Positions 13,532 to 64,000 of a DNA stretch of 64,000 nucleotides are shown here, one piece after another. The stretch comes from an uncultured Bacteroidales bacterium (GTDB lineage: Bacteria > Bacteroidota > Bacteroidia > Bacteroidales > VadinHA17). The notes under the pieces are model-generated. The model saw nothing but the letters and a program-made list of their open reading frames with translations, was not told the origin of the DNA and ran no database searches. The translations under genes and the position numbers were made by a program. Each line of letters starts with the position of its first letter. Position 1 is the stretch's first letter. The DNA lies in NCBI GenBank assembly GCA_963818295.1, contig CAWFRW010000007.1, positions 74,938-138,937 on the forward strand, in the 5' to 3' direction.

Positions 13532-15966
<2,435 letters not shown>

Positions 15967-19798: not shown

Positions 19799-19899
19799 CC
19801 GTTGAAATTCCTGTAGAATTCAAATCATCCGCACGAAAAAATTTCTTTAAAATAACAGTATAATTGAGATAGTCTTACAAAAATATTTATAAAATCAAT

Positions 19900-21441
19900 A
19901 TGAAATCATCTGCAGTAAAAAATCGTATTATCCCGGCTTTTTTGACCCTTTTAAGGATACTGATAGGCTGGCAGTTTTTATACGAAGGACTTATTAAATT
20001 ATTCAATCCCGCCTGGACAGCCAGGCCATTTCTTGAAGGTTCGAGGTGGATTTTCGGCGATATTTTCAGGTGGATGATTTCAGGCAATACAGGTATGTGG
20101 CTCGTTGATACGGCTAATGCATACGGACTAACTCTTATAGGAATAGCGCTTATCCTTGGAATTTTCACAAGACTTGCAGCATGGGGTGGCGTTACGCTCC
20201 TGCTTATGTATTATGTTGCCTATCCACCTTTCGGAGGATTCAGCTATGGAGTGCCATCTGAAGGCAGTTATCTGATTGTTAACAAGAACATGATTGAGAT
20301 TTTTGCACTTGTTATGCTGGCGTTAACTGATGCAGGCAACTATTATGGGCTTGACGGACTGCGAAAAAGGAAGAAAGCTGAAGCCGCAGAAACCAAGGTA
20401 ATTGTAGAAGAACCTGATCCAAAGGAACCTAATTCACGTCGCGAACTGTTGAAAGGACTTGCCGGAATACCTGTTCTTGCAGTATTCTCAGGAGCCCTTG
20501 CAAGGAATATGTCCGAACTCGGACCAGATGCAATGTCAGGAGCAACGATTAAGGTTGATTTCAAGCAGAAGAATGATCTCAAGGGAAAACTCCCCGAAGG
20601 CAAACTGGGCAATCTGAATGTAAGCAGAATGATCCTGGGCTGCAACCTTATCGGAGGCTGGTCACATGCACGCGACCTCATTTATTCCGATAAGCTTTTC
20701 AAGGCATACAACAATGAGAGAAAGATTATTGAGACCCTTTACCTGGCAGAGCAGGCAGGAATAAATACTTCATTCATGGTAACCCAGTATTATGACACTT
20801 TCAATAAATATAAAAGCATATATAACAGCAATATGCAATCAATCTGCCAGGCTATGCTGCCCGACAAGGATTTCTTCTCGAATATAAATATGGCTATTGA
20901 CGCCGGTGCCACAGCAATTTATATACAGGGAGGCGAGGGTGACAGGTATTGCAACTCCCAGAAAGTAGATATGATCAACAAAGCTGTAGAGTATATTAAG
21001 AAGAACGGTTTCATGGCAGGAATGGGAGCACATTCAATTGAATCAATCAAAACAGTTGAAACTGCCGGTATCCCGGTTGATTTTTATGTAAAGACTTTAC
21101 ACCATGACAAATACTGGTCGGCTCATCCTATTGAGAACCGTGTCGAATACAGTGTTATAGGTCCGAACTCACCTGATCACAATCAGCTGCATGAAAATAT
21201 GTGGGATCTGTTTCCTCAGAAGACGATCGATTATATGAAGAGCATAAACAAACCATGGTTTGCCTTCAAGGTTCTGGCAGCAGGAGCAATTGAACCTAAG
21301 GAAGGCTTCAGGTTTGCATTCGAAAACGGAGCCGACTTTATCTGTGTTGGAATGTTTGATTTCCAGGTGATTGACAATGTCAATACAGCCTGTGAAGTCC
21401 TGGGTTCGCTTAACAACAGGGAAAGAGCCTGGTTCGCCTAG
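19900..21441 (+). CDS. DoxX-family membrane domain fused to an internal Tat-like motif and a ~330-aa soluble domain of unknown family
   Basis: Intact 513-aa ORF. Residues 1-150 are DoxX-like (FLTLLRILIGWQFLYEGLIK…AYPPFGG). A charged linker follows, then SRRELLKGLAGIPVLAVFSGALA (20434-20502), then a probable alpha/beta-barrel-like domain. Confidence 0.65.
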   Translation: MKSSAVKNRIIPAFLTLLRILIGWQFLYEGLIKLFNPAWTARPFLEGSRWIFGDIFRWMISGNTGMWLVDTANAYGLTLIGIALILGIFTRLAAWGGVTLLLMYYVAYPPFGGFSYGVPSEGSYLIVNKNMIEIFALVMLALTDAGNYYGLDGLRKRKKAEAAETKVIVEEPDPKEPNSRRELLKGLAGIPVLAVFSGALARNMSELGPDAMSGATIKVDFKQKNDLKGKLPEGKLGNLNVSRMILGCNLIGGWSHARDLIYSDKLFKAYNNERKIIETLYLAEQAGINTSFMVTQYYDTFNKYKSIYNSNMQSICQAMLPDKDFFSNINMAIDAGATAIYIQGGEGDRYCNSQKVDMINKAVEYIKKNGFMAGMGAHSIESIKTVETAGIPVDFYVKTLHHDKYWSAHPIENRVEYSVIGPNSPDHNQLHENMWDLFPQKTIDYMKSINKPWFAFKVLAAGAIEPKEGFRFAFENGADFICVGMFDFQVIDNVNTACEVLGSLNNRERAWFA

Positions 21442-24647: not shown

Positions 24648-27600
24648 TTGATGCGTTTAGGGAAATATAAACAAGTTATTGTATTTCCAGTTTTCCTGCT
24701 TTTTTCAGCATCAGTCAGCGGACAGGCAGGCTCTGGCTATAAATACCAGTTTGGCGTGGAACCTGCAAAGAATGAGATCATACCGTGGAATCAATCTCTC
24801 ACAATCAATTATTCAATATCTGAACTCAATTTAGAAGATCTTGACAAATTCCAACGGGTCATTCTACAGAGTATCCATACCCGGACATGTTTCATCAACT
24901 GCACCCGGCAAACCTGAACTTCCGGTATTAAGCCGGCTAATTACAGTTCCTGATGGATTGAGTTATAAAGTAAGAATTTCTGATATAAAATCATCAAGAA
25001 TAAATCCATCGCGCAGAAATATAAGGGGAATTCTCTATCCGGCACAGGAAGGTGAAACAAAGGAGACAAAACAGAATAATCGCCGGTTTTTAATTGATAA
25101 AAATGCTTATGCTGCCAGAGGAGTTATTTCTTCGGATACAGTAAGAATAGAAGAGATTGGTACTGTCAGAAACAAGAGGCTGGCCAACCTGTACATATCT
25201 CCTGTTCATTATAATCCCAGGACAAATGTTCTGGAGGTTATAACCTCAATGAAGATTGATATTGAATACAGTTCAATGGGAAGTGCAAAATCGGGTGCTT
25301 CGTATCCGGAATCAGAACTCTTCATTAAAACTCTGGATAAATCGATGATTGATTATAATCCGGGTGATGTGATTCCGGGTTATTCCACCAGCCCGTGAAA
25401 ATGGTAATAATTACTGACACAGCATTCAGAAAGCATCTGTTACCATTTCTTCAAATGGAAGACCCAGAAAGGATTTGATCTGAAGATCCTTTATAAAGGA
25501 GCAGACACTTGCCGGAACAACCTATGCTCCAATTAAAAGATTCTCTTAACAAGATCTATAATTCAGCCTCCGCTGATGATCCTGCTCCTGAATATCTCCT
25601 TATTATAGGTGATGTCAACCACATTCCAAGATCAGATGTTACAAGCAATATCTCGGATATGTATTACGGGGAATTTGACGGAGGCGGCGACTATATTCCT
25701 GAAATGTTTATCGGAAGATTGCCTGTTTCTGATACAAACGATGTTAAAACAGTTGTGAATAAAATCATCCAGTATGAAAAGTTCGAGTTTGCTGATACAA
25801 ATAAATTTTACAACAGGGCTCTGATAACTGCAGGCAATGATGTGACATATTCCGTAAATATGAACGGACAGTTGAATTATGTTCTGAACAACTATCTGAA
25901 AAGTTCAAATCATCTGGATGAATATCATTTTTTCTATCCCCAGGCAGCTTATGCCACTGTTGAGGATTCAATAAAAAAGCTTTTCAAAAAAGGGATCTCA
26001 TTTGTAAACTATACAGGACACGGTGATGCTTCCGGCTGGCTCGATCCGCTAATAAAGTCAAAGGATGTCGATTCATTGAAGAACAAGAACATGTATCCTT
26101 TTACAATCAGCAATGCATGCAGGACAGCCCAGTTCAATACAGCTTCATCGTTCGGTAACAGGATGGTCCTTGCAAAAGATAAGGGCGCCATAGGATTTAT
26201 AGGCTGTTCAAATGACTCTTACTGGGATGAGGATTATTTCTGGGCTATCGGGGCCGGAGCCGTTACAATAGAGCCTACCTATCAGACTACAGCGCTTGGA
26301 GCCTATGACAGGTTATTTCATATAAACGGAGAATCTCCGTCAGACTGGTATTTTACGATGGGACAGATTAATTATGCCGGCAATCTGGCAGTAAGTGCCA
26401 GCACATCCGCCAGAAAAAAATACTATTGGGAAACTTATAATCTTATCGGTGACCCAAGTGTAATCCCAATAATCGGAAATCCGGGTACTTTTACTGTCAC
26501 TGTACCTGATACACTGCCAAATGGCATCAAATCGCTTACATTAAATGCAGATCCGTTCACATATTTTGCTGTATCGCATTCCGACACATTGTGGGATGCT
26601 TCATTTGTGAGCGCCTTCAGGTTCTGTTGAGCTTACAATGCCGGGTTTATCAAATGATTCCTGCCTTGTGGTTGTCACTGGTCAGAATAAAAAACCAATT
26701 ATTAAGACTGTCCGCTTTTCGAACGTCACGGGTGAATATCTAAATCTCACCTCAAACAGTATAAATGATATTGAGGGAAATAATAACGCAAGGGCCGATT
26801 ACGGCGAAACCTTCTTTCTCAACCTTACAGTGAGCAATCTTGGCTCAGACTGATGCAAATAACCTTTATGCCAAAATCTCTTCATCATCGGAACTTCTGA
26901 CTATCAGTCAGGACTCTGTCTATATCGGCACTCTCAGGGCCAGATCAGAGAGGATACTTCATGACAATCTTAAGATGACAATTTCTGGCGATGTTATCGA
27001 TATGGGTGTTGTAACAATTGATCTTCTTCTTAAAGATTCAAAAACAGAGAAACATTATAAACTGGATATCTGCGTACATGCTCCTGATCTTGCAATAACA
27101 AACTGCACTCTGAATGATACAACTAGCCGGAAACAAGAATAATGTTGCAGACCCGGGAGAAACATTCTATCTGAATTTCAAGGTAATGAACCAGGGCAGC
27201 AGCAGCATTGCAGGACAGTTTTATGTAAGCAGCAACACACCTGAACTAACAATTCTCGAACCGAATGTAAAATCCGGAGATCTTAAATTCGGGGAGACAA
27301 CTGATATTCCGGTAAAAGTTAAACTGTCAGAATCGGCATCATCCGGAAGCTTTTTCTCAGTTTCATCAATGCTCGACTGTACATCCTTATGTGCTAAACA
27401 AAGATTTTTCATTCAGGGTTGGCAGGATCAGGGAGAGCTTTGAATCATTATCATTCACAGTCTTTCCATGGATCAATGTCGAGTGCAATACCATGGGTGA
27501 TTACAAGTACAAATCCCGTATGAAGGCGTTGTTTCAGCCCGTTCGGGCCCGATCTCTCATGGTGCAAGTACTTCTCTTAGCATCAGAACAATATTTGAAA

Positions 27601-41993: not shown

Positions 41994-44086
41994 TTATATC
42001 AGGTGTGTTGAGACCAGCAGCATATCTATCAGCTTTATACCGATAAATGGAACTATTATTCCCCCGATTCCATATATGACAATATTAAGCGCCAGCACAC
42101 GGTTAGCTGAAACAGGGCGATACTTCACACCTCTGAGGGCAAGCGGTATAAGGATTATGATTATTAAGGCATTGAAAATAACTGCACTTAAAATAGCGCT
42201 TTCGGGAGAGGTGAGCTTCATAATATTAAGTACGCTCAACGGGGATACTCCGGAAGCAGTAACATATAATAACGTTGCAATGGCCGGAATGATAGCAAAA
42301 TATTTGGCCACATCGTTAGCAATGCTGAAAGTTGTTAGTGCCCCGCGTGTCATAAGCAGTTGTTTCCCGGTTTCAACAACTTCAATCAGTTTTGTGGGAT
42401 TACTGTCAAGGTCAACCATGTTACCCGCTTCCCGGGCTGCCTGTGTACCTGTATTCATCGCCAGTCCGACATCAGCCTGGGCAAGGGCAGGTGCATCATT
42501 TGTACCATCACCGATCATTCCAACCAGATGGCCTTTTGCCTGTTCTTCCCTTATCCGGAAAAGTTTATCTTCAGGTTTAGCCTCAGCCAGAAAATCATCA
42601 ACACCGGCCTCAGCAGCGATAGCTGCCGCAGTTTGAGGGTTGTCTCCGGTTATCATCACTGTTCTGATACCCATCATCCTGAGCTGTGCAAAACGTTGTT
42701 TAATACCCCCTTTCACTATATCCTTAAGGTGAATGACTCCAAGTACCTGACCATTTTCAGCAACTACAAGCGGAGTAGCTCCCTGGCGTGAAAGATCTGT
42801 TACTATTTCTTCTACTTTGACAGGGAAAAAACCATTGTTGTTCTCAATGAATTTTCTGATTGCAGCAGCTGAGCCTTTTCTTATGCTTCGTAACTGGCCT
42901 GCCAGGTAATTTTATATCTATACCGCTCATGCTTGTCTGTGCAGTAAAGGGTATGAATACACTTTCAAGGGAATGCATTTCTCTGGCTCTAAGATTAAAT
43001 TTCTCCTTGGCAAGGACAACTATCGAACGTCCTTCAGGCGTCTCATCGGCAAGAGATGCAAGCTGGGCGGCGTCAGCCAGAACCTCCTCCGTGATACCTT
43101 CAGCAGGTATGAATTCAGTTGCCATACGGTTACCTAATGTAATTGTTCCGGTTTTATCAAGGAGCAGAACATCGGTGTCTCCTGCGGCTTCAATAGCTCT
43201 CCCGCTTGTGGCGATAACATTTTTTCTCAGTAGTCTGTCCATTCCGCTGATGCCTATTGCACTGAGCAATCCACCTATTGTAGTCGGAATAAGACAGACA
43301 AGGAGTGAGATCAGGACTGGAAGCGAAAGATTGTGACCGGAAGATACCCCTGATGCATGAAGGCTGTAGCCAAAGTAAGCCGGCAGGGAGATAACCACCA
43401 GCAGGAATATCAGGGTAAGGCCCGACAGCAGAATAATCAGTGCTATTTCGTTAGGTGTCTTATGCCGTTTTGCCCCCTCTACAAGAGCAATCATTCTGTC
43501 CAAAAAAGTGAAACCGGGTTCCGAGGTTACACGAATTGTGATTTTATCACTGATTACTTTTGTACCGCCTGTCACAGCAGAGCGATCTCCTCCGCTTTCA
43601 CGGATCACAGGAGCGGATTCACCCGTAATAGCAGATTCATCGACACTTGCAATTCCCTCTGTTACATCACCGTCAGCAGCTATTATATCGCCTGCTTCGC
43701 AGATAATAATATCTCCTTTTCTTAACTCCGTGGCCAGAACAAACTCCTCCTTACTATTTACCAGTTTCCGGGCCTTCGTCTGGGTACGGCTTTTTCGTAA
43801 ACTATCTGCCTGTGCCTTTCCCCTTCCTTCAGCCACTGCTTCGGCGAAATTGGCAAACAGTACAGTAAACCAGAGCCATACAGAGATCTGAAAATTAAAG
43901 CCTGAAAAATGGTTGGTAATGATATCGATGAAATACCACCACCGTGGTCATTACAGCTCCGATACCCACAATGAAAATTACAGGATTCTTCACAAGAACC
44001 GACGGATTCAATTTAATAAAAGAGTCTATTAATGCCTGCAGCGCTATTTCTTTTGTAATCAAGCGACTCGAATTTCGTTGTTCCAT
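41994..44086 (-). pseudogene. kdpB: K+-transporting P-type ATPase subunit B (at least 2 frame changes)
   Basis: Fragments 43895..44086, 42844..43836 ([14 protein letters not shown]) and 41994..42716 ([26 protein letters not shown]). Confidence 0.9.
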
Positions 44087-44103
44087 ACTATTTATCTTAG
44101 AAA

Positions 44104-45789
44104 TTAAAATCCAATACCCAGATTCATTAATAAATGTTCAACTATGGGGCCTAATGCCAGAGGAGGAAAGAATGTCAGACCACCAACAATTAGAATAACA
44201 CTTATTAACAACATCACAAACAGCCAGTTATCAGTTCTGAAAGTACCTGAAGAAACCGGAGTTTTCCTTTTCCCTGCCATACTTCCTGCGATTGCCATCA
44301 CAGGTACTATTACACCAAACCGGCCAATGATCATCCCAAATGCAAGCATCACATTATAAAATACATTATTGGTTCCAAGCCCTCCAAAGGCGCTGCCGTT
44401 ATTTCCGGCTGCGGAACTGAAGGCATACAAAATTTCTGACAGCCCGTGAGGACCCGCATTTGTCAGACCCGACAGTCCCGCTGGCACTGAACAGGCGATC
44501 GCAGAAAAAATCTTTATGACTACACTTGGAGCTAAAATGGCAAGGATTGTCATTTTCATCTCATAAGCCTCTACCTTCTTGCCCAGAAATTCAGGCGTCC
44601 GTCCAACCATTAATCCCGCAATAAATACAGTGAGAAGGATAAAAATAATTATACCATACAGGCCTGATCCTACTCCTCCAAAAATTATCTCTCCCAGCAT
44701 GATATTGAACATGGAAACCATCCCCGACAGAGGAGACAAACTATCATGCATTGCGTTCACCGCTCCACAGGATGTAACCGTAGTAACTACAGACCACAAG
44801 ACGCTGTTTGCAATACCAAAACGGGTTTCTTTCCCCTCCATGCTTCCTGACACATTCAGTAAATTGTTATGGCTGTATTCTGACCACAGTGATATGCCAA
44901 GGCCTATTACGAGCAGTACGAACATTGTAATAAAGACAGTCCGTGCCTGGCGCCCGGACCCCGCATAATGGCCATACGTAAAGACCAAACCGCCCGAAAT
45001 AATGATCAGTGCAAACATCTCCAGAAAATTGGAAAAAGGGGTTGGGTTCTCAAAAGGGTGAGCACTGTTTGCTCCGAAAAATCCTCCTCCGTTTGTGCCA
45101 AGTTGCTTGATAGCAATCTGTGAGGCAGCGGGACCAAGAGGTATAATTTGCTCTGTTCCCTGCAAAGTTGTTGCACTGGCATAATGAGAAAATGTCTGTA
45201 CTACTCCCTGTCCCATCAACAAAACTGCAAGAATAACAGACAGAGGCAATAAAACATAGACTACGCTTCTTGTCAGGTCCACCCAGAAACTGCCGAGTGC
45301 ATCAGAAGTTTTCCTTGTCAACCCCCTAATCAGGGCCAGCGCAACAGCTATACCGGTCCCCGCGCTGACAAAATTCTGAACTGTCAGTCCCAGCATCTGC
45401 ACAAAGTAACTCAATGTATTTTCACCGCTGTAGGATTGCCAGTTTGTATTCGTTACAAAACTGACAGCTGTATTAAACGAAAGATGCCATGAAACATCAG
45501 GCAGATGTTCAGTGTTAAGTGGCAGATATGACTGAAATATTTGCAGGAGGAAGAGAATAACAATACCAAATAAATTGAATAGCAGAACACCATATAAATA
45601 TGTCTTCCAGTTCATTTCCTCATCACCGGTGATTCCGGCCATCCTGTAGATGAATTTTTCAAGCCAGCCAAGAACAGGCTTCATAAAGTGCTTTTCCCCC
45701 ATAAATACCCTCGCCATATACTTTCCCAGCAAGGGAGCAAGGGCAATCAGCACCAATAAATAAATAATCAGTTGTATCGCTTCATTCAT
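44104..45789 (-). CDS. kdpA: K+-transporting ATPase subunit A
   Basis: Intact 561-aa ORF, KdpA-like along its full length (…NTNWQSYSGE…GTNGGGFFGANSAHPFENP…). Confidence 0.95.
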   Translation of the reverse strand: MNEAIQLIIYLLVLIALAPLLGKYMARVFMGEKHFMKPVLGWLEKFIYRMAGITGDEEMNWKTYLYGVLLFNLFGIVILFLLQIFQSYLPLNTEHLPDVSWHLSFNTAVSFVTNTNWQSYSGENTLSYFVQMLGLTVQNFVSAGTGIAVALALIRGLTRKTSDALGSFWVDLTRSVVYVLLPLSVILAVLLMGQGVVQTFSHYASATTLQGTEQIIPLGPAASQIAIKQLGTNGGGFFGANSAHPFENPTPFSNFLEMFALIIISGGLVFTYGHYAGSGRQARTVFITMFVLLVIGLGISLWSEYSHNNLLNVSGSMEGKETRFGIANSVLWSVVTTVTSCGAVNAMHDSLSPLSGMVSMFNIMLGEIIFGGVGSGLYGIIIFILLTVFIAGLMVGRTPEFLGKKVEAYEMKMTILAILAPSVVIKIFSAIACSVPAGLSGLTNAGPHGLSEILYAFSSAAGNNGSAFGGLGTNNVFYNVMLAFGMIIGRFGVIVPVMAIAGSMAGKRKTPVSSGTFRTDNWLFVMLLISVILIVGGLTFFPPLALGPIVEHLLMNLGIGF

Positions 45790-48743: not shown

Positions 48744-49394
48744 ATGGCGGTATTTACAAGAACAACAAAGAACCTGATCCTGAAGATTGATGAGTTCTTT
48801 GACAATATAGATCTTGGACTGCTTGTTTTCAGGGAAGGGATAAAGGCATATCTTGATAAGGATATGGAGGCATTTGAACGGCATCTTCAGAAGGTTGATT
48901 CCCTCGAGAGCAATGCTGACAAGCTTCAGCGCGCGATTGAAAATGAGATGATCACTCATTCAATACTTCCTCAGCACAGGGCGGAGGTCAGCACACTTAT
49001 AGATCAGCTTGATGAGATAATAGATGCCGTAAAAAGCACTCTGAACGAGATCAGCATCGAACTGCCCGATATCCCGGAATCACTTAACAAAAATTTTATA
49101 AGTCTAACAGAGACTTCAATAAACTCTGCAGAGGAGCTTATACCTGCAGCAAGGGCATTCTTCAGGGCCCCATATACAGTCAGGGATAAGCTGCTTAAAG
49201 TCTATTATTTTGAAACTGAAACAGATAAAATATCTTTTTCCACAAAGAAGATCATTTTTCAGGAGATGAATGAACTTGATCTGGCTCATAAGTCTCATTT
49301 GAGATATATAATTCACCACATAGAAAATATTTCCGATCTGGCACAGAAGGCTGCTGACTCTGTTGTCAGTGCGCAATGGCGATTAAAATTATGA
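48744..49394 (+). CDS. DUF47 / PhoU-like phosphate-transport regulator family protein, copy C (divergent paralogue)
   Basis: Intact 216-aa ORF of the same length and helical pattern as copy B, but much lower identity. Directly upstream of the second PiT gene. Confidence 0.75.
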   Translation: MAVFTRTTKNLILKIDEFFDNIDLGLLVFREGIKAYLDKDMEAFERHLQKVDSLESNADKLQRAIENEMITHSILPQHRAEVSTLIDQLDEIIDAVKSTLNEISIELPDIPESLNKNFISLTETSINSAEELIPAARAFFRAPYTVRDKLLKVYYFETETDKISFSTKKIIFQEMNELDLAHKSHLRYIIHHIENISDLAQKAADSVVSAQWRLKL

Positions 49395-49400
49395 TGTAAT

Positions 49401-50646
49401 ATGATTCTGTTCTTCCTGACAAGCGGTCTTTTCCTTGGCTGGTCGCTCGGGGCAAATGATGCCTCCACATGTGTTCGGTTCAGCTGTGGGTTCAAAGATG
49501 GTAACATTCAGAAAAGCGGCAATAATTGCTTCAGTATTTTTCATTCTGGGAGCCGTTCTTCAGGGTTCAGGGACATCTCATACTCTTGGTAAGCTTGGAG
49601 CCGTGAATGCACTCGGCGGATCATTCACAGTTGCACTGGCGGCTGCGATTACAATCTACATGATGACAAAGTTTGCGATGCCTATATCGACAACCCAGGC
49701 TATTGTCGGAGCAATTATCGGATGGAACTTTTTTACCGGAAACCATACAGACAGCAAGACCCTGTCTACCATTGTGATGGCATGGATGGCTGGTCCTGTA
49801 ATGGGTGCGATATTCGCAATCATCCTGTATATAATCGTAAAGATATTCAAGAAATCGATGAAGATACATCTGATACGATTTGAGTCATTTATAAAGACAG
49901 GATTAATTGTTGTCGGCGCTTTCGGCTCTTACAGTCTTGGAGCCAATAACATTGCCAATGTTATGGGAGTCTTTCTGCCTGCATTCAATCTTAATGATCT
50001 CGATCTGGGCATCTTTACGCTGAACTCAGCACAACAGCTATTCCTCCTTGGCGGAATTGCAATTGCCGCAGGAATAATTACATATTCACGGAAAGTGATG
50101 AATACCCTGGGAAACAATATTTTAGAACTCTCTGCCGAAGCTGCCCTTGTTGTTGTTCTGGCACAGGCGATTGTACTTTTTATTTTTTCATCAACCGGTC
50201 TGTCGACCTTTGTTGTCAATCACGGCCTCCCTCCTATTCCAATGGTCCCGGTTTCAAGCTCACAGGTAATTGTAGGCTGTATTATCGGGATTGGTCTTTA
50301 TAAGGGTGGCAGAAACATAAATTTCAGAATCCTTGGCGAGATCGGGCTGGGCTGGATCATATCACCTCTTTCATCAGGTTTACTTACATTTTTCATGCTG
50401 TTCTTCATGAAGAATATATTCGGTATTGATGTCGGATTTAATGCCGGTGATCCGGTTGCTGTTGCTGCCCATTTAAATAATCCGATGATGGCAGGTCAGT
50501 CAGATATATCGGATATAGTCAAATATCTCCTTCTCGGATTGTTTGTCTTTGGAGCTCTTGGACTTGCATATTATATCCTTCTTGAAAACAAAAAAAGAAG
50601 AGAGCTGCAAAAATCAGAAGCCAAATTCTGGAAGAATATGAAATGA
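49401..50646 (+). pseudogene. pit: PiT-family inorganic phosphate transporter, copy 2 (one frameshift near 49460)
   Basis: MILFFLTSGLFLGWSLGANDAS (49401..) shifts into …VFGSAVGSKMVTFRKAAIIA… (49435..50646). The second half has …YSLGANNIANVMG…. Confidence 0.8.
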
Positions 50647-50816: not shown

Positions 50817-52906
50817 TTACTGTTTAACTCCATTCTTCCTCCGTGAAACTATTTTTACCGCTGTGGATCTCCAAAGAGTTGTATTACGTTTACAGCACAA
50901 AAATGAATAATTCTTCCCGTAATCCATCATCTGTCCGAGATAATCATCCGTATACTTAACCACTACATCCGAAATAGTCCCATTTGTATCATAAACCGGT
51001 GATAATACTGGATTTACAAAACCTGTATATGGAGCCAGATGTAGCTTTTCGTAACGATCAAGAATTTCAGCATGAAGCACCGGATCAATCTTCACTCCGT
51101 AGTCCTCAATCAGTTTTTTACCTGAGACAAAATCGCCTTCCGATTTAATCCGCTGGATCTCCATGAGTAATTCTCCGAAAAGCGTTCTGAGCCTGTCATA
51201 ATCATTTATCTTCACAGATGTCTTGCCGTCATGATTAATGAATTCAACGACATTTTCACTTTTTCCCCGGCAATAAGCCCACTGTGAAATTACCGACCTG
51301 CAGCGCATATGTGCCTCTTCAATATCTTTTCCTCGCTTTATTCTGACTATCTGTGTAAGCAAGCCATTCCTGAGGTAAGAGTCATATTCAGCCTCTGCAG
51401 CTTCACGTCCGGGCAGCAGTCCCAGTTCTGTTATCTTATTGTCCATTATGAAATATAGCGCAAACAGGTCTGCCCTTGCCTCCTCAAGCGTCGAAGCATA
51501 ATTTTTCAAGGCATTCGGATCAGTACCTTCAGCCAGTTTGCCGCTGGCGTGTCCGATACACTCATGAAGATCTGTATGAAGGGCATCAGCTATAGCGGCA
51601 TATTTTTTACTCCTTGCTACTTCATCTGCATCAGCTGCAAACTCTTCAAGGAAACCATTCCCCTGAGATGATACATCGTATGCATTTGTTATATTGGCCA
51701 GTGTAACGGATTTGGATCCGACCTCTTTTCTTATCCAGTCGGCATTGGGAAGATTTATACCCAGAGGAGATGCAGGATAACAATCTCCTCCGAGCATTGC
51801 AATATTTATTACTTTGGCAGCAACACCTGTAACTTTCTCTTTTTTGTACTTCGGCTGGATAGGTGAATTATCTTCAAACCACTGGGCATTCGAAGTTATA
51901 ATTCTTGTCCTCTTCGTCGCTTCGAGGTCTGTATAATCAACTATCGCCTCCCATGTTGCCTTCATTCCAAGCGGATCTTCATAGTTCTCAATAAACCCAT
52001 TTATATAATCTATCATGGAATCGCTGTTCTTCACCCAGGCTACATTGTATTCATCCCATTTCCTGAGATCTCCCGATTTATAATATTCAATCAGAAGACC
52101 AAGTTCATTCTTTTGGGCAAGTGTCTCAGCTACTGATGCCGCCTTTTCAAGCCATTTAACAATTACCTCAATCGCCTGACCATACTTACCATTTAAACTG
52201 TAGACCTCTTCGGTCAGCTTCTCCCTTGGCCTTTACAATTTTTGAATTCAGTCCCAGAGAAACAGGATGAGGATCCATTGGGATTGGTTTTTCCTGCATA
52301 AAACTCCTCAACCTCCTTCTGTGTAACACCTTCATAAAAGTTGGATGCCGATTCGGCAACCATATCCGCTCCCTCCCTCTGTTCAACCTTTCTGGGATAA
52401 AGCTTCTCGCTCGAATATAACCGGAGACAATTCTGATATCAGCTGATCTAGTAGACTGACCGGAAGAAAGCGGAAGTTTCACGGGATCGCTTTCCTTCAC
52501 CAGCCGGGCAAAATATTCTTCTGAAAAACCCGGCTTCAGTCTTGTCTCTCGAATAGTGGTGATGAATTCCGTTAGCAAAGAATACCCTTTTAGCATAGAT
52601 GAGAAATGAATTGTAATCGGCAGACTCCCTGTCGCCTGAATAGCTTTCAATAATCGCTTCAAGGGTCTTTCTTATTTTAAGGTTATACCTGAAGTTCTGA
52701 TCCCACAGGATATCCCGGCCTGAAAGTGCAGCCTGACTCAGATAATATAAATACTCTTTTTCATTAAGTGCAAGCGATTCAAATCCGGGAAGCTTATATT
52801 TAAGAACCCTCATATCATCGAACTGTTCAACGAAGTATACGAAATCATCTTTGATTTCAGCTGTGGGTAGTTCATTATTGCTATGAATCATGCTCAGTGT
52901 TACCAT
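50817..52906 (-). pseudogene. M49 (dipeptidyl-peptidase III) family metallopeptidase (at least 3 frame changes in the 5' third)
   Basis: HECIGHASGK (HExxGH) and EEARADL are in the intact 50817..52034 block. N-terminal fragments are 52448..52906 and 52186..52662. Confidence 0.8.
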
Positions 52907-56673: not shown

Positions 56674-57381
56674 ATGAGCGAATTAATTGAAATATTAAGA
56701 CAAGAACTCTTAAGTAATGCGGATGAAAAGGTAAAAAAGTCCGGAGAAAGATTTTTTAAGGAAGAGGTCAGGCTATATGGTATAAAATCAGCCACTGTTG
56801 TAAGATTGGAAAGGAACATTACAAGCACTTAAAGGATAGAAAGCAAAGCTGAAATATTCAGTCTTTGCGAAGAATTATGGAAATCGGGAATCATGGAGGA
56901 GTCGTTTATTGCATGCAACTGGTCATATTATGTAAATAAACAGTACGAACAGTCTGACTTTGAAATCTTTAACAGATGGGTGAACAATTATGTAGGCAAC
57001 TGGGCATCATGTGACACTCTCTGCAATCATTCTGTCGGCACTCTTGTCGAAATGTATCCCATCCTTCTTGCAGAACTGAAAAAATGGGCAAAATCGAAAA
57101 ACCGCTGGGTAAAGCGTGCATCCTCAGTTTCACTTATCGTACCTGCAAGGCGCGGATTGTTTCTGGATGACATCTTTGAAATAGCTGATATTCTGCACTC
57201 TGACCAGGATGACATGGTTCAGAAAGGGTATGGCTGGATGCTTAAGGCTGCCAGCCAGGCTCATCAGGAAGAGGTCTTCCGGTATGTAATGAATAAGAAG
57301 GCAACAATGCCCAGAACATCACTCAGATATGCAATAGAAAAGATGCCGGCAGAATTAAAAGCAAGGGCTATGGCAAAATAG
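56674..57381 (+). pseudogene. DNA alkylation repair protein (HEAT-like repeat family), 1-2 frame changes near 56820-56890
   Basis: MSELIEILRQELLSNADEKVKKSGERFFKEEVRLYGIKSA… from ATG 56674. The remainder is in 56893..57381 (…NRWVKRASSVSLI…VQKGYGWMLK…). Confidence 0.7.
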
Positions 57382-57422: not shown

Positions 57423-59114
57423 ATGGTCAGAATATTTTCATTTATTCCTTTTAATTTTTATTCAATTCAGTCTGTTCTCTCAGGACCGGATCACCGGTCA
57501 TGATTTTGCTACAAGATCGGAAGTTATTGCCCGCAACGGGATGGCTGCTACAAGTCATCCGCTTGCAACCCAGGCTGCTCTTGATATTCTCAAAAAAGGA
57601 GGCAATGCAATAGATGCTGCAATTGCTGCCAATGCTGTACTTGGAGTTGTAGAACCAACAGGAGCCGGTATTGGCGGAGATATTTTTGCACTGATCTGGA
57701 GTGCAGATAAAGAAAAGCTATATGGATTAAATGGCAGCGGCAGATCTCCAAGATCTCTTAAAATGGAATATTTCAGGGAGAATGGCTATGATTTCATTCC
57801 TTCATACGGTCCTCTGCCGGTTTCTGTACCCGGATGTGTTGACGGCTGGTATGAGATGAATGAGATGTTCGGACGTCTTTCGATGAAAGATATTCTCCAG
57901 CCTGCAATAAATTATGCCAGGGATGGATTTCCGGTTACTGAAGTTATTGCATGGTCGCTTGCAAGGAACTGCTGAGCTCCTTAAGGACTATCCCAATATA
58001 AAAGAGGTATATATGCCCGGAGGCAAATCTCCTTCAAAGGGGGAAATATTTAAAAATCCGCTGCTTGCAAACACTCTCGAAAAAATTGTAAGAGGTGGCA
58101 GAAATGAGTTTTACAGGGGAAGTATAGCAAGGGATATTGATCTTTTCATGAAAAAACAGGGAGGTTTTCTCTCATATGAAGACCTGGCACGTCATCATTC
58201 CGAATGGGTGGAACCTGTAAGCACAACATACCGGGGCTATGAAGTCTGGGAACTGCCTCCAAACGGACAGGGAATTGCTGCCCTGCAGATGCTGAATATC
58301 CTTGAAGGATTTGATCTTGCCTCAATGGGATTCGGATCAGCTGAATATATTCATGTTTTTACCGAAGCAAAAAAACTTGCTTTTGAAGACAGGGCAAGGT
58401 ATTATGCTGATCCTGTTTTCAGTGCAACACCTGTTGCACAGCTTCTCTCAAAGAAATATGCAGCTGAAAGACGCAAACTTATCAACCCCGATAAGGCAGC
58501 AAAGATCTATGACAGTGGTAAAATAGAAGCAGGCAATACAATATATCTGACAGTTGCTGACAGGTACGGCAATATGGTATCACTTATCCAGAGCAATTAC
58601 AGAGGCATGGGATCAGGAATGTGTCCTACCGGACTGGGATTTGTTCTGCAGGACAGGGGTGAAATGTTCAGCCTCTCAGAAGGTCATAACAATATGTATG
58701 CTCCGGGCAAAAGACCTTTTCATACAATAATACCTGCCTTTATAACAAAGAACCATAAGCCCTGGATCAGCTTTGGTGTTATGGGTGGTGATATGCAGCC
58801 TCAGGGACATGTACAGATTATTGTCAACCTTATTGATTTCAAAATGAATCTTCAGGAGGCAGGTGATGCCCCGAGGATACATCATATAGGATCATCCGAA
58901 CCGACAGGCCAGCAGATGACCGATGGCGGAATCCTTCTGCTTGAAAACGGATTTCGCTGGGAGGTGATACAGAAACTTATGAGACATGGGACATAAAGTT
59001 CAATGGGATCTTGGAGGTTATGGAGGATATCAGGCAATAATGTGGGATGCCAAAAATAAAGTCTGGTTCGGAGCCTCAGAATCAAGGAAAGACGGACAGG
59101 CTGCAGGGTATTAG
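57423..59114 (+). pseudogene. ggt: gamma-glutamyltransferase (at least 3 frame changes)
   Basis: …NGMAATSHPLATQAALDILKKGGNAIDAAIA…, GNTIYLTVADRYGNMVSLIQSN (Thr nucleophile region), MGGDMQPQGH. The tail …YGGYQAIMWD…ESRKDGQAAGY-stop ends at 59114. Confidence 0.9.
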
Positions 59115-59201: not shown

Positions 59202-59647
59202 TTATTTTATACCAAGCAAATCAACCAATCCGTTGATAAAAGTAAGCGGATGAACCGGGTTACCCGGAACATACAGATCAATATGATTCTGTTCAATGAA
59301 TTTTCTGTCAAGGGCCGGACTTCCGGCAAAGATTCCTCCGCTTATTGCATCTGTTCCTGCAAGTATTATAATTTTTGGTGAAGGTGTGGCATCATAGGTT
59401 ATCTGAAGCGGTTCAGCCATATTCCTTGATATTGGTCCTGTAATAACAATTCCGTCAGCATGGCGCGGTGAAGCAACAAATTCAATCCCATACCGTCCCA
59501 TATCAAAATTCACATTACCGCATGCATTCAGTTCAAGTTCAGTGCTGTTATCTCCACCTGCAGAAACCTGTCTCAGTTTGAGTGAACCGCTGAAATAGCT
59601 TCGTATCTCCTTTCTGATCAGATCAGGATTGAGTCTTACAGGTTCAT
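59202..59647 (-). pseudogene. NuoB/HycG-like small subunit lacking all four [4Fe-4S] cysteine ligands (start unresolved; likely ATG 59645-59647 plus a one-base shift)
   Basis: …RQVSAGGDNSTELE…RYGIEFVASPRHADGIVITGPISRNM…IIILAGTDAISGGIF…YVPGNPVHP…. The NuoB core is conserved but Cys is replaced at every ligand position. Confidence 0.75.
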
Positions 59648-59953
59648 GCTGAACCTTCTGTTAATTATCAGCCTGTTCCTCTCATTTGCAGAGAGTCTGT
59701 AATCAGTTGTAAAGCTTATTTTCTCTGGAAACAGTCTTGCACATTCACCGCAGAAGGTACACTTGCCAAGGTCAATCGTGAATGGATCGGTATTAATTGC
59801 ATCTGTCGGACAGATATCAGCAATGGCCTTTCCATCAACGCTCTCCATACTTATTTCAGGCCTTCCCCTGAATATTCCGGGAACTTTTGCCGTTGTCAGA
59901 TCAGGAATAAATTGTTTACCCTGGTGATATAATATTTTAAGTGTTCTTAACAT
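59636..59953 (-). CDS. NuoI/HycF-like ferredoxin subunit retaining ligands for only one [4Fe-4S] cluster
   Basis: Intact 105-aa ORF. Motif 1 is degenerate (SVDGKAIADICP, only the last Cys is kept). Motif 2 is CTFCGECARLFP (first three Cys kept, the fourth is Phe). Confidence 0.7.
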   Translation of the reverse strand: MLRTLKILYHQGKQFIPDLTTAKVPGIFRGRPEISMESVDGKAIADICPTDAINTDPFTIDLGKCTFCGECARLFPEKISFTTDYRLSANERNRLIINRRFSMNL

Positions 59954-59974: not shown

Positions 59975-61481
59975 CTAAAGATCATGTCCGCAATATGACA
60001 GATTGAAACTCTTGTTGCACACCGGGAAATCTGAAATTTCATTATTCCTCACTGCAAGAGCCAGAGCAAGCCAGTTATGAAATGATGGATCCTTAACCTT
60101 ATATAATAAGCAGCTCTCCATTTTTGTCTGTTATTGCAGCATGGCAGATCTCTCCTCTCCATCCTTCGGTAAGGGATATTGCGAACATATCAGGTTCAGG
60201 CTGAATGTTTCCGTTCTGAGCTCATTCCAGGTTCAGGTATCTGTTGCAGCAATTGCCTTATATAGCCAATAGACTGTTTCACCTCTTCCTTTCTTATCTG
60301 TACTCTTGAATATACATCACCATGATGTTTCAGAACAGGAGCATGGTTAAATTCACTGTACAGGCCATATGGATGAGAACTCCGGATATCCCTGTTCAAT
60401 GCATTCATTCTGGCTGACATCCCAACTGTACCGATTGACAGCAACTGATCATAGCTTAACATTCCTGTCCTTTCAAATCTCGAGAGACAGCTTGGCATTT
60501 TTGAAAGCTCACTGTTCATTTCAATAAAGTCGGGTTCAAAATCATTCAGAACCTTTTCAAGCCTTGCAAGCCAGTTCGTTTGTAAATGGATATGGATTAT
60601 AACCAGCTCTCATCAAGCCCTTTTGCCAGACGGTTGCCGCACCATTCCTGGAAAAAATTAATAATTGGTGTTCTGAGCCTTCCGAACACTGAACTGCCAA
60701 GCTGGTATGCAACATCAGTGCATATAGCACTGAGATCACCTGTATGTATTGCAATACGCTCAATTTCCTGGGCCAGAGTCCTGTGCATAAAGAATATCCC
60801 TGCTCTGCGAAATACCGCAAAGACTCTCCCACAAATAGGCAAAAGCAGTTGTATGACCAACAGCACTGTCACCTGCAACAGATTCAGCCAGAATAGTCCG
60901 CTGAAGAAGCTTCTTCTTTTCAAGAAACAGTTGTTCAACTCCCCGGTGCTGATATCCAAGCTGAATTTCAAGGTGAAGAATCTGTTCCCCGTTACAGACA
61001 AACCTGAAATGGCCTGGTTCAATAATTCCTGCATGAACAGGCCCTACTCCCACTTCATGAAGTTCTTCACTTGCAATATTAAAAAATGGGTAATCAGGTA
61101 TTATTTTTGATTTATCTGCCCTGCTTTCAGAATATCTGACTGGTTTTAGCCAGGGATGGTCATTATATGAAATATCAAAATTTTCATGTATTTCACGTTC
61201 AAATTTTTCAAAGGCAATATTCCTGGCAGAAAAAGAATTGAGGCGAATCTCCATGCATTTACCCTTGATGATGAAACCATTATATTATGCTTGATATCAT
61301 CAGCCATACAACAGATCAGCCTGATTGCATTGCTTTCCCTGTAACCAAAATAGAGAACACAATGTCTGTAAGGACTTTCCTCAGTAAGCGTTGTATTCAG
61401 CTCAAGGAAAATGCTATAGTCCATTTCAGGTATACTGCTTACCGGAACAGACTGATGGTTTAATATTGTTTTCAAGTTCAT
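59975..61481 (-). pseudogene. fused NuoC-NuoD / HycE-like large subunit lacking the Ni-Fe cysteine ligands (at least 4 frame changes)
   Basis: NuoC-like N-terminus (FEREIHENFDISYNDHPWL); GPVHAGIIEPGHFRF; L1 position reads ESVAGDSAVGH; the C-terminus reads FPVCNKSFNLSYCGHDL-stop. Fragments 61146..61508, 60760..61254, 60597..61034 (middle part, …LAQEIERIAIHTGDL…), 60557..60832 and 60196..60519, plus an unlisted tail. Confidence 0.8.
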
Positions 61482-61482
61482 A

Positions 61483-62913
61483 TCAGACGGGTAAAATTTT
61501 AACTGCATCCTGAATTAACTGAACAAATATGGCCGGAGGATTGAGTCCAAGCCAGATAGCTGTAAACATCAGCAGATACTGAGTCAGTGATTCCCATGGG
61601 TTTATCTTTGGGATCTTTGATTCATCCAATCCGGGAACAGGCAGAAACAGGATCTTCAGGATATTCTTTCCAAAAGCCCAGATAACAATTGTAAGCAACA
61701 ATAAAACAATTGCCAGAAGGATAATATAATTTGCTTCAAAGAGTGATCTGAAAATCAGAAATTCACTCACAAACAGACCTGAAGGAGGCATTGCTGTTGC
61801 GCTTATAAAACCAAGAAGCAATACAATAGCCCCGGCAGGATTATATTTAAAATAATTCCCTACATGCTGAATGCTTTTGCTCTGAAATGTCCTGTATAAC
61901 TGGTTAAACTGAAAAAACAGGCCGGATTTTACAAAGGCATGCAAAATAATATGCAGAACAGCTGCATAATAACCAACTCCTCCGGCAGCAATTCCAAGCA
62001 TTACAATACCCATATGCTCAATACCCGAATAGGCAAACATTCTTTTTATATTCATAACCTTTGTCATATAGACAGTTGCTACAAATATTGAGAGGATAGC
62101 TGCTATAAAGATTACAAGGTTTGCCCAATGAAAAAGTGAAGTATGGGAAACAACAGCATAAAATCTGAAGATTCCGACAAAACCAAGATTCATGAGGACG
62201 CTTGCAAGCAAAGCACCTGCCGGAGCCGGTGCTTTATCCTTGGCATCGATACCGGCAGTATACATTGGGACCAAGTCCAAGTTTTGCGGTAAATCCTGTA
62301 AAGATAAAGAGGAAAGCCAGCCTGAGCCAGAATGGATTAAGCTTGTCTCTGTAATGCCATCAGGTTTGAGAAGGAGAGATCATTCGATCCGGCATGCTGG
62401 AGAGAAAGACTGAGAAAAAGTATGCCGATGAAAACAAATGTAATGCTTATTGCACAAATAAATACATATTTCCATGTTCCCTCAAGGGCAAGTTTATTCC
62501 TGTGATGATAAATAAGCATTGAGGCCGAAAGTGTTGTCATCTCGGTAAAAATCCAGATCACTGCAATATGATTGGCAAGATATGCTGCCGTAATTGAGGT
62601 TATAAGAAATACAAGCGCTGCAAAATATATGGCCCGCGACTCAGGTGTTTCATCGTGACGCATTATATACAGATAGCTGTGAAAAAGTGCCGGGATTGTA
62701 ATAATGCTCAAAGTCATAAGGAGCAGTAATCCAAGAGAATCAAATGTAAAATATTCAAGAACATGTGCTCTTATAATTGTAACATGCAAATATTGTAAAA
62801 CAGGTCTGAAGTATTCCGAAAATAACAATGAGAATATTGTTTACAACAGTGTTCCTGTTGGCAAAAATCAGTCCTGAAATTACAAATGCGCTTATAAGAT
62901 AGATCCCGGTCAT
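61483..62913 (-). pseudogene. NuoL/M/N (HyfB/F)-type antiporter-like membrane subunit (at least 2 frame changes)
   Basis: ATG 62911-62913 (MTGIYLISAFVISGL…). Fragments 62337..62828 and 61483..62280 (…FAYSGIEHMGIVMLGIA…ILHAFVKSGLF…). Confidence 0.8.
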
Positions 62914-62924
62914 TTTTTTCTTGT

Positions 62925-63557
62925 TTAATAATCTTTCAAATTGCTGAGCTGATCAACATCAACATCTTTAAATACATCACCGATTTTGTTCAGGAAGATC
63001 CCCAGTATTAAAACACTTGCAAATACATCAAGCATGATACCAAGGTTTACAAGGTTCGGCATTTCGTTCCCGACAGCAAGTGAAAGGACAAAAACACCGT
63101 TTTCAATCATCAGATAGCCCATAACATGGGTAATTATCTTTTTTCTTGAAGCGATGAAGTACAGTCCTGTGAAAAGAGTCGACAATGATACAATGAAGAA
63201 GATCTTATCGAGGTGAGTATCCTGTATTGAATTTGCAAGCAAAACTGTTACCACAACGATCATTGTAATAATTATCAGGGAGACAAAGTGTGGCAGATAG
63301 GGTTCAGTCTCCCTTGTAATTTTGTTTCTCTTTATCAGATAGCCTAAAAACATTGGGACGGCAAGTGCCCTGAATACAATTGTCTCAAGCAGGATCAGTA
63401 CAAGGTTCCAGGTCTGAATATCCTTAAGCTGAAGGAAAGTGACGCCAAAAAGAATAAATCCCTGCAGGGCAAGAACCCTTACATAAGTAATTATCCTGTT
63501 CGCAATTGAAACATATAAAAGGCTAATAATGAATATGATCAGAAGTACGTTTGTCAT
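62925..63557 (-). CDS. HyfE-like small polytopic membrane subunit
   Basis: Intact 210-aa ORF with about 7 TM helices, positioned as hyfE is in Hyf-type clusters (…GYLMIENGVFVLSLAVG…). Confidence 0.65.
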   Translation of the reverse strand: MTNVLLIIFIISLLYVSIANRIITYVRVLALQGFILFGVTFLQLKDIQTWNLVLILLETIVFRALAVPMFLGYLIKRNKITRETEPYLPHFVSLIIITMIVVVTVLLANSIQDTHLDKIFFIVSLSTLFTGLYFIASRKKIITHVMGYLMIENGVFVLSLAVGNEMPNLVNLGIMLDVFASVLILGIFLNKIGDVFKDVDVDQLSNLKDY

Positions 63558-63567
63558 TGTGAATTAT

Positions 63568-64000
63568 TTAAACAAATTTTTCCAGAACAAGCAATACACC
63601 AAGAAAGATTAAAAAGCTGACCGATGAGAGAGCCAGAATAAACTGAGGATTATGGTTCATCCTGAAGCGTGCCATGAATGATTCTATCAATCCTACAGTA
63701 ACTGCAAACAATGCCTGAATAAACAGGTAAAGTGGAATCAGCAAGGGAGAGTGACAATGATCCGATAAAAAAATCTGCAATAATTGCCCCGTACATTGCA
63801 AACTTAAGATAACCGGCTGTAAGTATAAGTCCAAGATCGAATCCGCTGTTGTCCAGAACCATTACTTCGTGAATCATTGTTAATTCAAGATGGGTTTTTG
63901 GGTCATCCAGGGGCATCCTGCTGTTCTCGATCATAGCAATCAGAACAAGTACACCTGCAGCAAGCCCTCCAAGAGTATATGTAATTGATGATCCAAGATG
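63568..64000 (-). pseudogene. NuoH/HycD/HyfC-like membrane subunit (3' part only; runs off the window; one frameshift near 63830)
   Basis: …ENSRMPLDDPKTHLELTMIHEVMVLDNSGFDLGL… (63650..63934) and the tail …FMARFRMNHNPQFILALS… (63568..63834). Confidence 0.75.

Follow-up and report, generated by a model that had tools for sequence, protein, structure and literature searches.

Gene organization of the ehr locus

The end of the window (the whole 64,000-nucleotide stretch of DNA from an uncultured Bacteroidales bacterium analyzed here) carries a minus-strand operon for a membrane-bound complex, in which the gene at 59975-61481 encodes a relative of [NiFe]-hydrogenase large subunits that has lost all four cysteine ligands of the Ni-Fe cofactor. 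This gene is ehrL, the large-subunit gene of an Ehr (energy-converting / Ech-hydrogenase-related) complex. Its product descends from the group-4 (4f-like) membrane-bound [NiFe]-hydrogenases and is not itself a hydrogenase, because the Ni-Fe cofactor cannot be bound. The interpretation developed here, in which an intact ehrL forms part of an ehr(A)BCDLS operon for an Ehr complex, is considered probable as a whole, including the mechanism proposed below. The operon is represented in the window by the following genes:

59202-59953, minus strand: ehrS, in which a ferredoxin-like N-domain (59639-59953) is fused to a NuoB/HyfI-like domain (59202-59642); one frame break near 59640
59975-61481, minus strand: ehrL, large subunit, a fusion of NuoC-like and NuoD/HycE-like parts, 499 amino acids after correction of six +1 frame breaks
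61483-62913, minus strand: ehrD, HyfF/NuoN-like antiporter-type subunit, with three +1 frame breaks
62925-63557, minus strand: ehrC, HyfE-like membrane subunit, 210 amino acids, intact
63568-64000, minus strand: ehrB, HyfC/NuoH-like, C-terminal part only, running off the window end, with at least one frame break near 63741

By three-frame translation in conjunction with tblastn using an intact relative, ehrL was resolved into seven in-frame segments separated by six frame changes (near 61255/61244, 60782, 60624, 60569, 60226-60205, and 60104, minus strand); an ATG at 61508 is a second possible, upstream start. The stitched protein of about 499 amino acids is colinear over its full length with more than 100 uninterrupted homologs of 498-508 amino acids at 75-90% identity, and the few relatives that carry organism names come from Bacteroidales/Bacteroidota metagenome-assembled genomes (MAGs). 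A genome scan yielded at least 590 further loci, of which the best 80 were taken as intact relatives; these belong chiefly to MAGs of Bacteroidales, Prolixibacteraceae, Lentimicrobiaceae, and Paludibacter and encode proteins 63-90% identical to that of the window.

The ehrA gene (HyfB/NuoL-like) lies beyond position 64000; it is present in 70 related loci and in L001, a syntenic locus with an EhrL 84% identical to that of the window and with the flanking gamma-glutamyltranspeptidase, DNA-alkylation-repair, and M49 peptidase genes in common. L001 contains six co-directional genes, encoding a HyfB/NuoL-like protein (675 amino acids), a HyfC/NuoH-like protein (301), a HyfE-like protein (210), a HyfF/NuoN-like protein (475), the large subunit (499), and a fusion of ferredoxin-like and NuoB/HyfI-like domains (249). 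The best Escherichia coli matches of the six products are HyfB, HyfC, HyfE, HyfF, HyfG, and HyfH plus HyfI, respectively. This gene order is kept in nearly all of the 80 related loci whose contig extends far enough, while the flanks are not conserved.

Loss of the Ni-Fe ligands in EhrL

The positions at which the large subunit of a [NiFe]-hydrogenase would bind its cofactor are occupied in EhrL by other residues, as detailed for the following features:

61000-61044, minus strand: beta1-beta2 loop GPVHAGIIEPGHFRF, hydrogenase-type (E-P-G-H), invariant in the family, lacking the NuoD quinone His
60853-60891, minus strand: former L1 motif LAESVAGDSAVGH, with Cys1 replaced by Ala (GCA), Cys2 replaced by Ser (AGT), and an invariant Asp between them
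59978-60031, minus strand, with the TAG stop immediately after it (59975-59977): C-terminus containing the former L2 motif, DFPVCNKSFNLSYCGHDL, with Cys3 replaced by Ser, Cys4 replaced by Gly, and no C-terminal extension

In an HMMER alignment with HycE (7z0s_E), RVCGICGFAH of the hydrogenase corresponds to SVAGDSAVGH, and DPCYSCTDR to NLSYCGHDL. When HyfG and NuoCD of E. coli and a Cys-bearing sister protein were aligned with EhrL by MAFFT, the same register was recovered, and MbhL (6cfw_L) was aligned as well; the only Cys near the C-terminus of EhrL falls one position off the ligand register. An earlier note, made from the letters of this DNA, had claimed that both Ni-Fe Cys pairs are replaced within conserved flanks and that L1 sits in an uninterrupted reading stretch. 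Both claims were borne out, the motifs lying within 3 nucleotides of the coordinates given at that time, and the alignments to HycE, HyfG, MbhL, and NuoCD showed that the Cys positions had been correctly assigned, with no frame change nearby. L1 is contained in an uninterrupted segment of 154 residues that is 90% identical to intact L001, and L2 in a 44-residue segment that is 95% identical (tblastn). Since both motifs sit in long in-frame segments, a hidden frame change at either one was rejected.

The substitutions are shared by the intact relatives. Among the 80 proteins, the first L1 position is Ala in 67, Thr in 10, Ser in 2, and Val in 1; the second is Thr in 67, Ser in 11, Asn in 1, and Cys in 1; and the two L2 positions are Ser and Gly, respectively, in all 80. 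The solitary Cys at the second L1 position is thus the only one at any ligand position in this set, and the surrounding EPGHFRF, GD pair, and KSF.LSY.G.DL elements are invariant or nearly so. The wider family was sampled by the best 150 representatives of clusters at 50% identity, of which 126 sequences (including the query, P0003) are complete at the ligand positions: 110 have no Cys there, 12 have one, and 4 have all four. Because the intact relatives show the same columns, replacement of the ligand cysteines is an old, conserved family trait and not a product of chance or base-calling error. The C-terminal Cys495 and His497 of EhrL were also considered as a new metal site, a weak candidate given that the Cys column holds Cys in 43, Ser in 28, and Ala in 8 sequences of the family and that the His column varies among His, Asn, Phe, and Val in the wider Ehr group.

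Fold of EhrL and its relation to HycE and NuoD

EhrL is confirmed as a HycE-type fusion of NuoC-like and NuoD-like domains. PF00346 (Complex1_49kDa) is detected in the window protein at 1e-30, and PF00329 (Complex1_30kDa, NuoC-like) in 31 of 35 family members. The best match in the Protein Data Bank is HycE, with E = 3.7e-32 for the single sequence and 2e-107 for the family profile, and the alignment begins within the NuoC-like N-domain. An AlphaFold2 model of P0001, a 90%-identical homolog (predicted local distance difference test score of 90.3, predicted template modeling score of 0.92), was superposed by Foldseek on HycE (7z0s_E) with a template modeling score of 0.87 and on E. coli NuoCD with a score of about 0.85. 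The profile match and the superposition uphold the HycE-type fusion proposed in the earlier note, as well as the presence of a NuoC-like N-terminal domain, which is however about 120 residues long and not 170. Model confidence is low in the beta1-beta2 loop, in keeping with the mobility of this coupling loop throughout the superfamily.

EhrL ends where mature HycE ends. The earlier note had pointed to the lack of a protease-removed tail; the tail is indeed absent, but this is not diagnostic, since the Cys-bearing sister L085 (Planctomycetota) terminates in ...CYSCTDL, also with no tail. The tailless C-terminus is therefore an ancestral feature of the group and does not signal that the cofactor was lost. 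The NuoD-type quinone ligands, a check on which had been proposed at the same time, are both missing: in Thermus thermophilus Nqo4 numbering, His38 aligns to Ile, and Tyr87 aligns to the invariant Gly of the AGD motif.

Small subunit EhrS and the gradient of cofactor loss

In a finding that goes beyond the earlier note, loss of cofactor ligands was found to extend to the small subunit. The relevant sites of EhrS are as follows:

59798-59818 (DICP) and 59741-59761 (CTFCGEC), minus strand: four Cys of the ferredoxin domain, one [4Fe-4S] cluster possible
59532-59564, minus strand: SAGGDNSTELE, proximal-cluster sites now Asp and Thr
59334-59360, minus strand: AGTDAISGG, proximal-cluster site now Asp
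59247-59270, minus strand: VPGNPVHP, proximal-cluster site now Asn

When aligned to MbhJ (6cfw_J), HycG (7z0s_G), HyfI, and NuoB, the four Cys of the proximal (N2-equivalent) cluster are replaced in EhrS by D134, T137, D201, and N231 (here and below, counts are over 77 family members, in L001 numbering). D134 is conserved in 77 of 77, D201 in 76 of 77, and N231 in 77 of 77, whereas position 137 is Cys in 70 of 77 and otherwise Thr (as in the window), Ser, Tyr, Gly, Asn, or Ala. In the ferredoxin-like domain, C65, C68, and C71 are present in all 77 members and C48 in 76, while the first CxxCxxC and the last Cys-Pro are missing. Under the standard ligation scheme of 2x[4Fe-4S] ferredoxins, the four retained Cys supply all the ligands of one cluster and not a single ligand of the second; by comparison with complex I of T. 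thermophilus, the retained pattern would be that of the inner cluster (N6b type, beside N2). By this motif assignment, EhrS of the Bacteroidota clade has lost the proximal-cluster ligands and one of its two ferredoxin clusters, with one isolated cluster predicted to remain. Cys137 and Cys185 were also considered as a conserved pair (a disulfide or ligands), a candidate that was rejected because they vary independently and are both Thr in the window clade.

Comparison across loci revealed the following states, from the Cys-bearing sister to the window clade:

L085 (Planctomycetota): Ni-Fe Cys 4/4; proximal Cys 4/4; ferredoxin domain with 8 Cys
L084 (spirochaete-type): Ni-Fe Cys 1; proximal Cys 3/4; ferredoxin domain with 8 Cys
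L090 (Aquicultor, Ehr): Ni-Fe Cys 0; proximal Cys 4/4; ferredoxin domain with about 8 Cys
L088 (Lentisphaeria, Ehr): Ni-Fe Cys 0; proximal Cys 4/4; ferredoxin domain reduced
L089 (Persephonella, Ehr): Ni-Fe Cys 0; proximal Cys 4/4; no ferredoxin domain
Most Bacteroidales: Ni-Fe Cys 0; proximal Cys 1/4; ferredoxin domain with 4 Cys
L091 (Rikenellaceae): Ni-Fe Cys 0; proximal Cys 0/4 (D, S, E, A); ferredoxin domain with 4 Cys
Window clade: Ni-Fe Cys 0; proximal Cys 0/4 (D, T, D, N); ferredoxin domain with 4 Cys

Judged by these ligand motifs, the Bacteroidota Ehr is the most cofactor-depleted form among the loci compared. The near-invariance of the Asp and Asn residues at the old ligand sites points to replacement under selection, for instance to form a cation site or a hydrogen-bond network, as opposed to random drift. 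In Rikenellaceae, the equivalents of D134, D201, and N231 are Asp, Glu, and Ala.

Operon conservation and membrane arm

The membrane subunits retain the charged residues expected of ion-translocating proteins of this type. In EhrA, the Glu of transmembrane helix 5 (TM5), the Lys residues of TM7 and TM8, and the Glu of TM12 are invariant (61/61), matching the HyfB pattern. EhrD has an invariant TM5 Glu, TM7 Lys, and TM12 Glu (75/75), with Asn or Cys at the TM8 position, as in HyfF, and EhrB retains the equivalents of NuoH E157 and E220.

No conserved soluble electron-input partner (formate dehydrogenase, NuoEF, or HycB-like) was found beside the operon in the 80 related loci, and no maturation gene adjoins it in the window or in those loci. 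The sole recurrent neighbor is a second, tandem ehrA paralog, present in 50 of 60 related loci. The tandem HyfB/NuoL-like copies are 44% identical to each other (e.g., L002, 966-2987 and 3026-5005), and L001 has only one. A scan for a terminator 3′ of ehrS detected nothing. Elsewhere in the group, the large- and small-subunit genes are separated by a PDDEXK_3 gene in the Cys-bearing Planctomycetota sister (L085, 9001-11871) and by a pair of Fic-domain genes in the Persephonella Ehr locus (L089, 1859-4722).

Assignment to the Ehr family

Ehr complexes are an already known kind, of which the window holds a Bacteroidales member. They are reportedly credited to Coppi 2005 and Marreiros et al. 2013, with Geobacter sulfurreducens GSU0739-0745 as an example. 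The assignment is supported by homology, by motif loss, and by the gene set and order. Ehr proteins have been placed near group 4f but lack the CxxC motifs (PMC10284858, PMC6349859), and the gene order has been given as ehrABCDLS (PMC6688271). The arrangement ehrBCDLS, with ehrA past the window end, reproduces this published architecture, so that Ehr was an apt choice of comparison in the earlier note. A set of six syntenic genes without binding-site motifs has been described as Ehr-like and of unknown function (PMC4378227), and EhrA-1, EhrC, EhrL, and EhrS have been named in Geobacter (PMC7894505). In addition, the signature [AS]GD[ST]...KSFNLSY.G.DL is common to the window family and to relatives from Lentisphaeria, spirochaetes, Persephonella, and Aquicultor, and Lentisphaerae and spirochaete sequences have been grouped among Ehr (PMC6349859). 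A literature search, which did not cover Coppi 2005 and Marreiros 2013, found no Ehr structure, functional study, or description of Ehr in Bacteroidetes.

Comparison with related systems

The window complex shares with other Ehr complexes an identical six-subunit set and order, a group-4-homologous large subunit missing both CxxC motifs, and the lack of a maturation-protease tail. It differs from those of Aquicultor, Persephonella, and Lentisphaeria, with four of four proximal Cys, in having none of these in EhrS and a single ferredoxin-domain cluster. The group-4f-like complex of L085 (protein P0292) has the same gene order, including the fused ferredoxin plus NuoB subunit, the EPGHFRF loop, and the same C-terminus length; in contrast, it retains four Ni-Fe Cys, four proximal Cys, and eight ferredoxin Cys, and it is about 29% identical to the window family.

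Hydrogenase 4 / formate hydrogenlyase of E. coli (HyfBCEFGHI; 7Z0S) provides the best solved structure for comparison, with 32% identity between EhrA and HyfB and 26% between EhrL and HyfG; EhrB, EhrC, EhrD, and EhrS correspond to HyfC, HyfE, HyfF, and HyfH plus HyfI, respectively. Unlike that system, the window complex has no Ni-Fe ligands, proximal cluster, HyfA, HyfD, HyfJ, formate dehydrogenase, or cleaved tail, and its HyfH and HyfI counterparts are fused and reduced. The Q-module of complex I (NuoCD/NuoB/NuoI/NuoH) has the fold in common with Ehr, along with NuoH-like and antiporter-like partners bearing conserved charged residues, whereas Ehr lacks the quinone His/Tyr, the N2 cluster, and the N-module, and is nearer to hydrogenases than to NuoD.

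The antiporter-like Ehr subunits carry the full set of TM5 Glu, TM7 Lys, and TM12 Glu found in Mrp antiporters. Ehr is nevertheless not a member of the Mrp family, as it has NuoH-, NuoD-, and NuoB-like subunits that the seven-subunit Mrp complex (MrpA-G) is missing; by analogy, the complex may work like an Mrp-type antiporter, with no obligatory redox input. The sulfane-sulfur reductase of Pyrococcus (MBS/MBX, 6U8Y) likewise derives from a hydrogenase and has a large subunit that has ceased to bind Ni-Fe. Its similarity to the window protein is far weaker (E = 1e-8, compared to 4e-32 for HycE); MBS has 13 subunits and keeps three [4Fe-4S] clusters.

Nature of the frame breaks

Frame breaks in the window are not confined to the ehr genes. 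The flanking gamma-glutamyltranspeptidase, M49 peptidase, and PHO4 genes are broken, the DNA-alkylation-repair gene has a short out-of-frame stretch, and thrA-like and kdpB-like genes elsewhere in the window are likewise split:

13626-15966, plus strand: thrA-like gene, frame-split
41994-43836, minus strand: kdpB-like gene, frame-split
49401-50646, plus strand: PHO4 gene, frame-split
50817-52906, minus strand: M49 peptidase gene, frame-split
56674-57381, plus strand: DNA-alkylation repair gene, frame-split
57436-59111, plus strand: gamma-glutamyltranspeptidase gene, frame-split

The mappable breaks are mainly +1 insertions at about one per kb and affect the majority of window genes, a pattern that fits an insertion-biased, unpolished assembly. 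Relative to L001, the net insertions amount to +7 nucleotides in ehrL, +3 in ehrD, +2 in ehrS, and 0 in ehrC, each ehr break being a single-base insertion. When the corrected ehrL was compared with that of L001 over 494 codons, no stop codon was found, and the rates of nonsynonymous (dN = 0.105) and synonymous (dS = 1.41) substitution gave a dN/dS of about 0.07, the same as in comparisons among intact relatives. The breaks in ehrL are most likely single-base insertion errors of a noisy assembly; underneath them, the gene is uninterrupted and strongly constrained by purifying selection. This attribution to assembly error follows from the all-insertion spectrum and from the fact that a genome with most of its genes frameshifted would not be viable.

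Proposed function and alternative interpretations

The membrane arm of EhrA, EhrB, EhrC, and EhrD would form a conserved ion translocator of the complex-I/Mrp type. There appears to be no electron wire to the former EhrL pocket, given the loss of the Ni-Fe and quinone ligands, of the proximal cluster, and, according to the motif scheme, of the outer ferredoxin cluster. Since the membrane arm is intact and strongly constrained and no electron path is encoded, the complex would most likely transport H+/Na+ as Mrp does, with no redox chemistry of the hydrogenase type taking place at the pocket. The EhrL/EhrS cap may then act as a gating or regulatory module, with a structural or sensory role for the remaining EhrS cluster. 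Both the proposed transport and the proposed part played by the cap are inferred from sequence.

Competing readings of the gene itself and of its product carry little weight. If the frame breaks were real mutations, the window ehrL would be a genuine pseudogene in a decaying ehr operon. The density of breaks in ehrL, six in 1.5 kb and thus about four times the rate of one per kb in its neighbors, speaks for such decay and against our interpretation, and no homopolymer or motif context was found that accounts for the excess. However, all breaks are +1, whereas natural indels in bacterial pseudogenes lean towards deletions, and most genes of the syntenic 15 kb, together with the thrA-like and kdpB-like genes, are hit alike, which a cell could not sustain; moreover, the corrected gene has no in-frame stop and the same low dN/dS as between intact relatives. 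A true pseudogene is therefore largely rejected on the dN/dS, the indel map, and the insertion pattern, and is regarded as very unlikely. The abundance of errors in the window sequence could instead be taken to mean that a working [NiFe]-hydrogenase is present, its ligand Cys masked by miscalled bases or a misset frame. This reading has virtually no chance of being correct: it is already refuted by the long in-frame segments with 90-95% identity to intact relatives, by the alignments, and by the 80 relatives, which are non-Cys at the ligand positions save for one second-L1 residue, while the Ala codon GCA would need two base changes to encode Cys. Similarly, assignment to a NuoD-type quinone-reducing module (complex-I-like or Hyq-like), in place of a redox-dead complex, could draw on the NCBIfam NuoD models that match EhrL and on the public annotation of relatives as 'NADH-quinone oxidoreductase subunit C'. 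Those matches fall far under the cut-off (141 versus 360 bits), the ligand His/Tyr are Ile/Gly, the ligands of the N2-equivalent cluster are absent, and HycE/HyfG are nearer than NuoCD by sequence, profile, and fold, so that a quinone module is highly improbable.

A redox role of another kind deserves more attention. Reduced ferredoxin or another donor might feed electrons via the remaining [4Fe-4S] cluster to an unknown substrate in a remodeled EhrL pocket, so that the complex would still be a redox-driven pump; the former proximal site could serve as a relay if it held some other cofactor or a cluster ligated by Asp/Asn in place of Cys. The near-invariant Cys of one ferredoxin cluster are consistent with this scheme, as are the Asp/Asn residues that occupy three of the four old ligand sites almost without exception, the complete proximal clusters of other Ehr lineages, which imply that the Ehr family may be redox-active, and the greater abundance of Geobacter Ehr subunits on formate (PMC7894505). 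On the other hand, Rikenellaceae (D, S, E, A) and the window clade (D, T, D, N) have no common ligand set, Cys137 and Cys185 vary freely, and no donor module (formate dehydrogenase, NuoEF, or HycB) is conserved beside the operon; the donor-facing ferredoxin cluster also appears to be lost, as mapped with general knowledge of ferredoxin motifs. A redox-driven pump is thus judged unlikely, though less so than the readings above. Certain observations do weigh against a purely Mrp-like complex. Transport is proposed on the basis of residue conservation in the membrane arm. Conservation is, however, also very strong in the peripheral subunits (the invariant EPGHFRF loop, GD[ST], and KSFNLSY.G.DL), which speaks against a cap that is merely passive and might stem from a type of catalysis not yet known, and the Asp/Asn residues may ligate a metal or cluster at the former proximal site. 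The conservation of the cap and of these Asp/Asn residues also makes room for a more specific proposal, which is regarded as rather doubtful: the Bacteroidota Ehr would be a complex-I-type machine without electron transfer to the former active site, in which Asp and Asn residues (EhrS D134, D201, and N231; EhrL D204) make up a novel site without redox function, able to bind a proton, a cation, or a small molecule. This site would gate or drive the Mrp-like translocator, or else the ion gradient would drive non-redox chemistry in the pocket, comparable to CO2 hydration by the Cup and Dab proteins.

Other genes in the window

Beyond the ehr locus, the window encodes several other transport and membrane systems, as well as a peptidase:

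18299-21441, plus strand: NapC/NirT-type multihaem cytochrome c (499 amino acids), followed by a 513-amino-acid DoxX-domain protein
25509-26630, plus strand: Peptidase_C25 (gingipain-type) domain protein, probably a piece of a larger split gene
41994-45789, minus strand: intact kdpA (561 amino acids) and the split kdpB
48744-50646, plus strand: PhoU-like and PHO4 phosphate-transporter pair, syntenic with L001

The NapC/NirT-type cytochrome and the DoxX protein may together transfer electrons in the membrane, with no connection to ehr. Scans for tRNA genes and Rfam families over the whole window gave no hits.

Implications

The analysis of ehrL indicates that a motif-level reading of frame-broken genes in noisy assemblies can be reliable when intact relatives are used. 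Cys-less Ehr proteins are widespread, as the 110 of 126 complete cluster representatives attest, and are routinely misannotated as 'Ni,Fe-hydrogenase III large subunit' or 'NADH-quinone oxidoreductase subunit C'. In metabolic reconstructions of Bacteroidales, ehrL should be labeled neither as a hydrogenase nor as a complex I subunit. If the more specific proposal above held true, nature would have separated, in the Bacteroidota Ehr, the coupling machinery of complex I from redox chemistry. A complex that lacks an electron path yet keeps all ion-translocation residues and an invariant coupling loop would be a good system in which to study complex-I coupling without redox.

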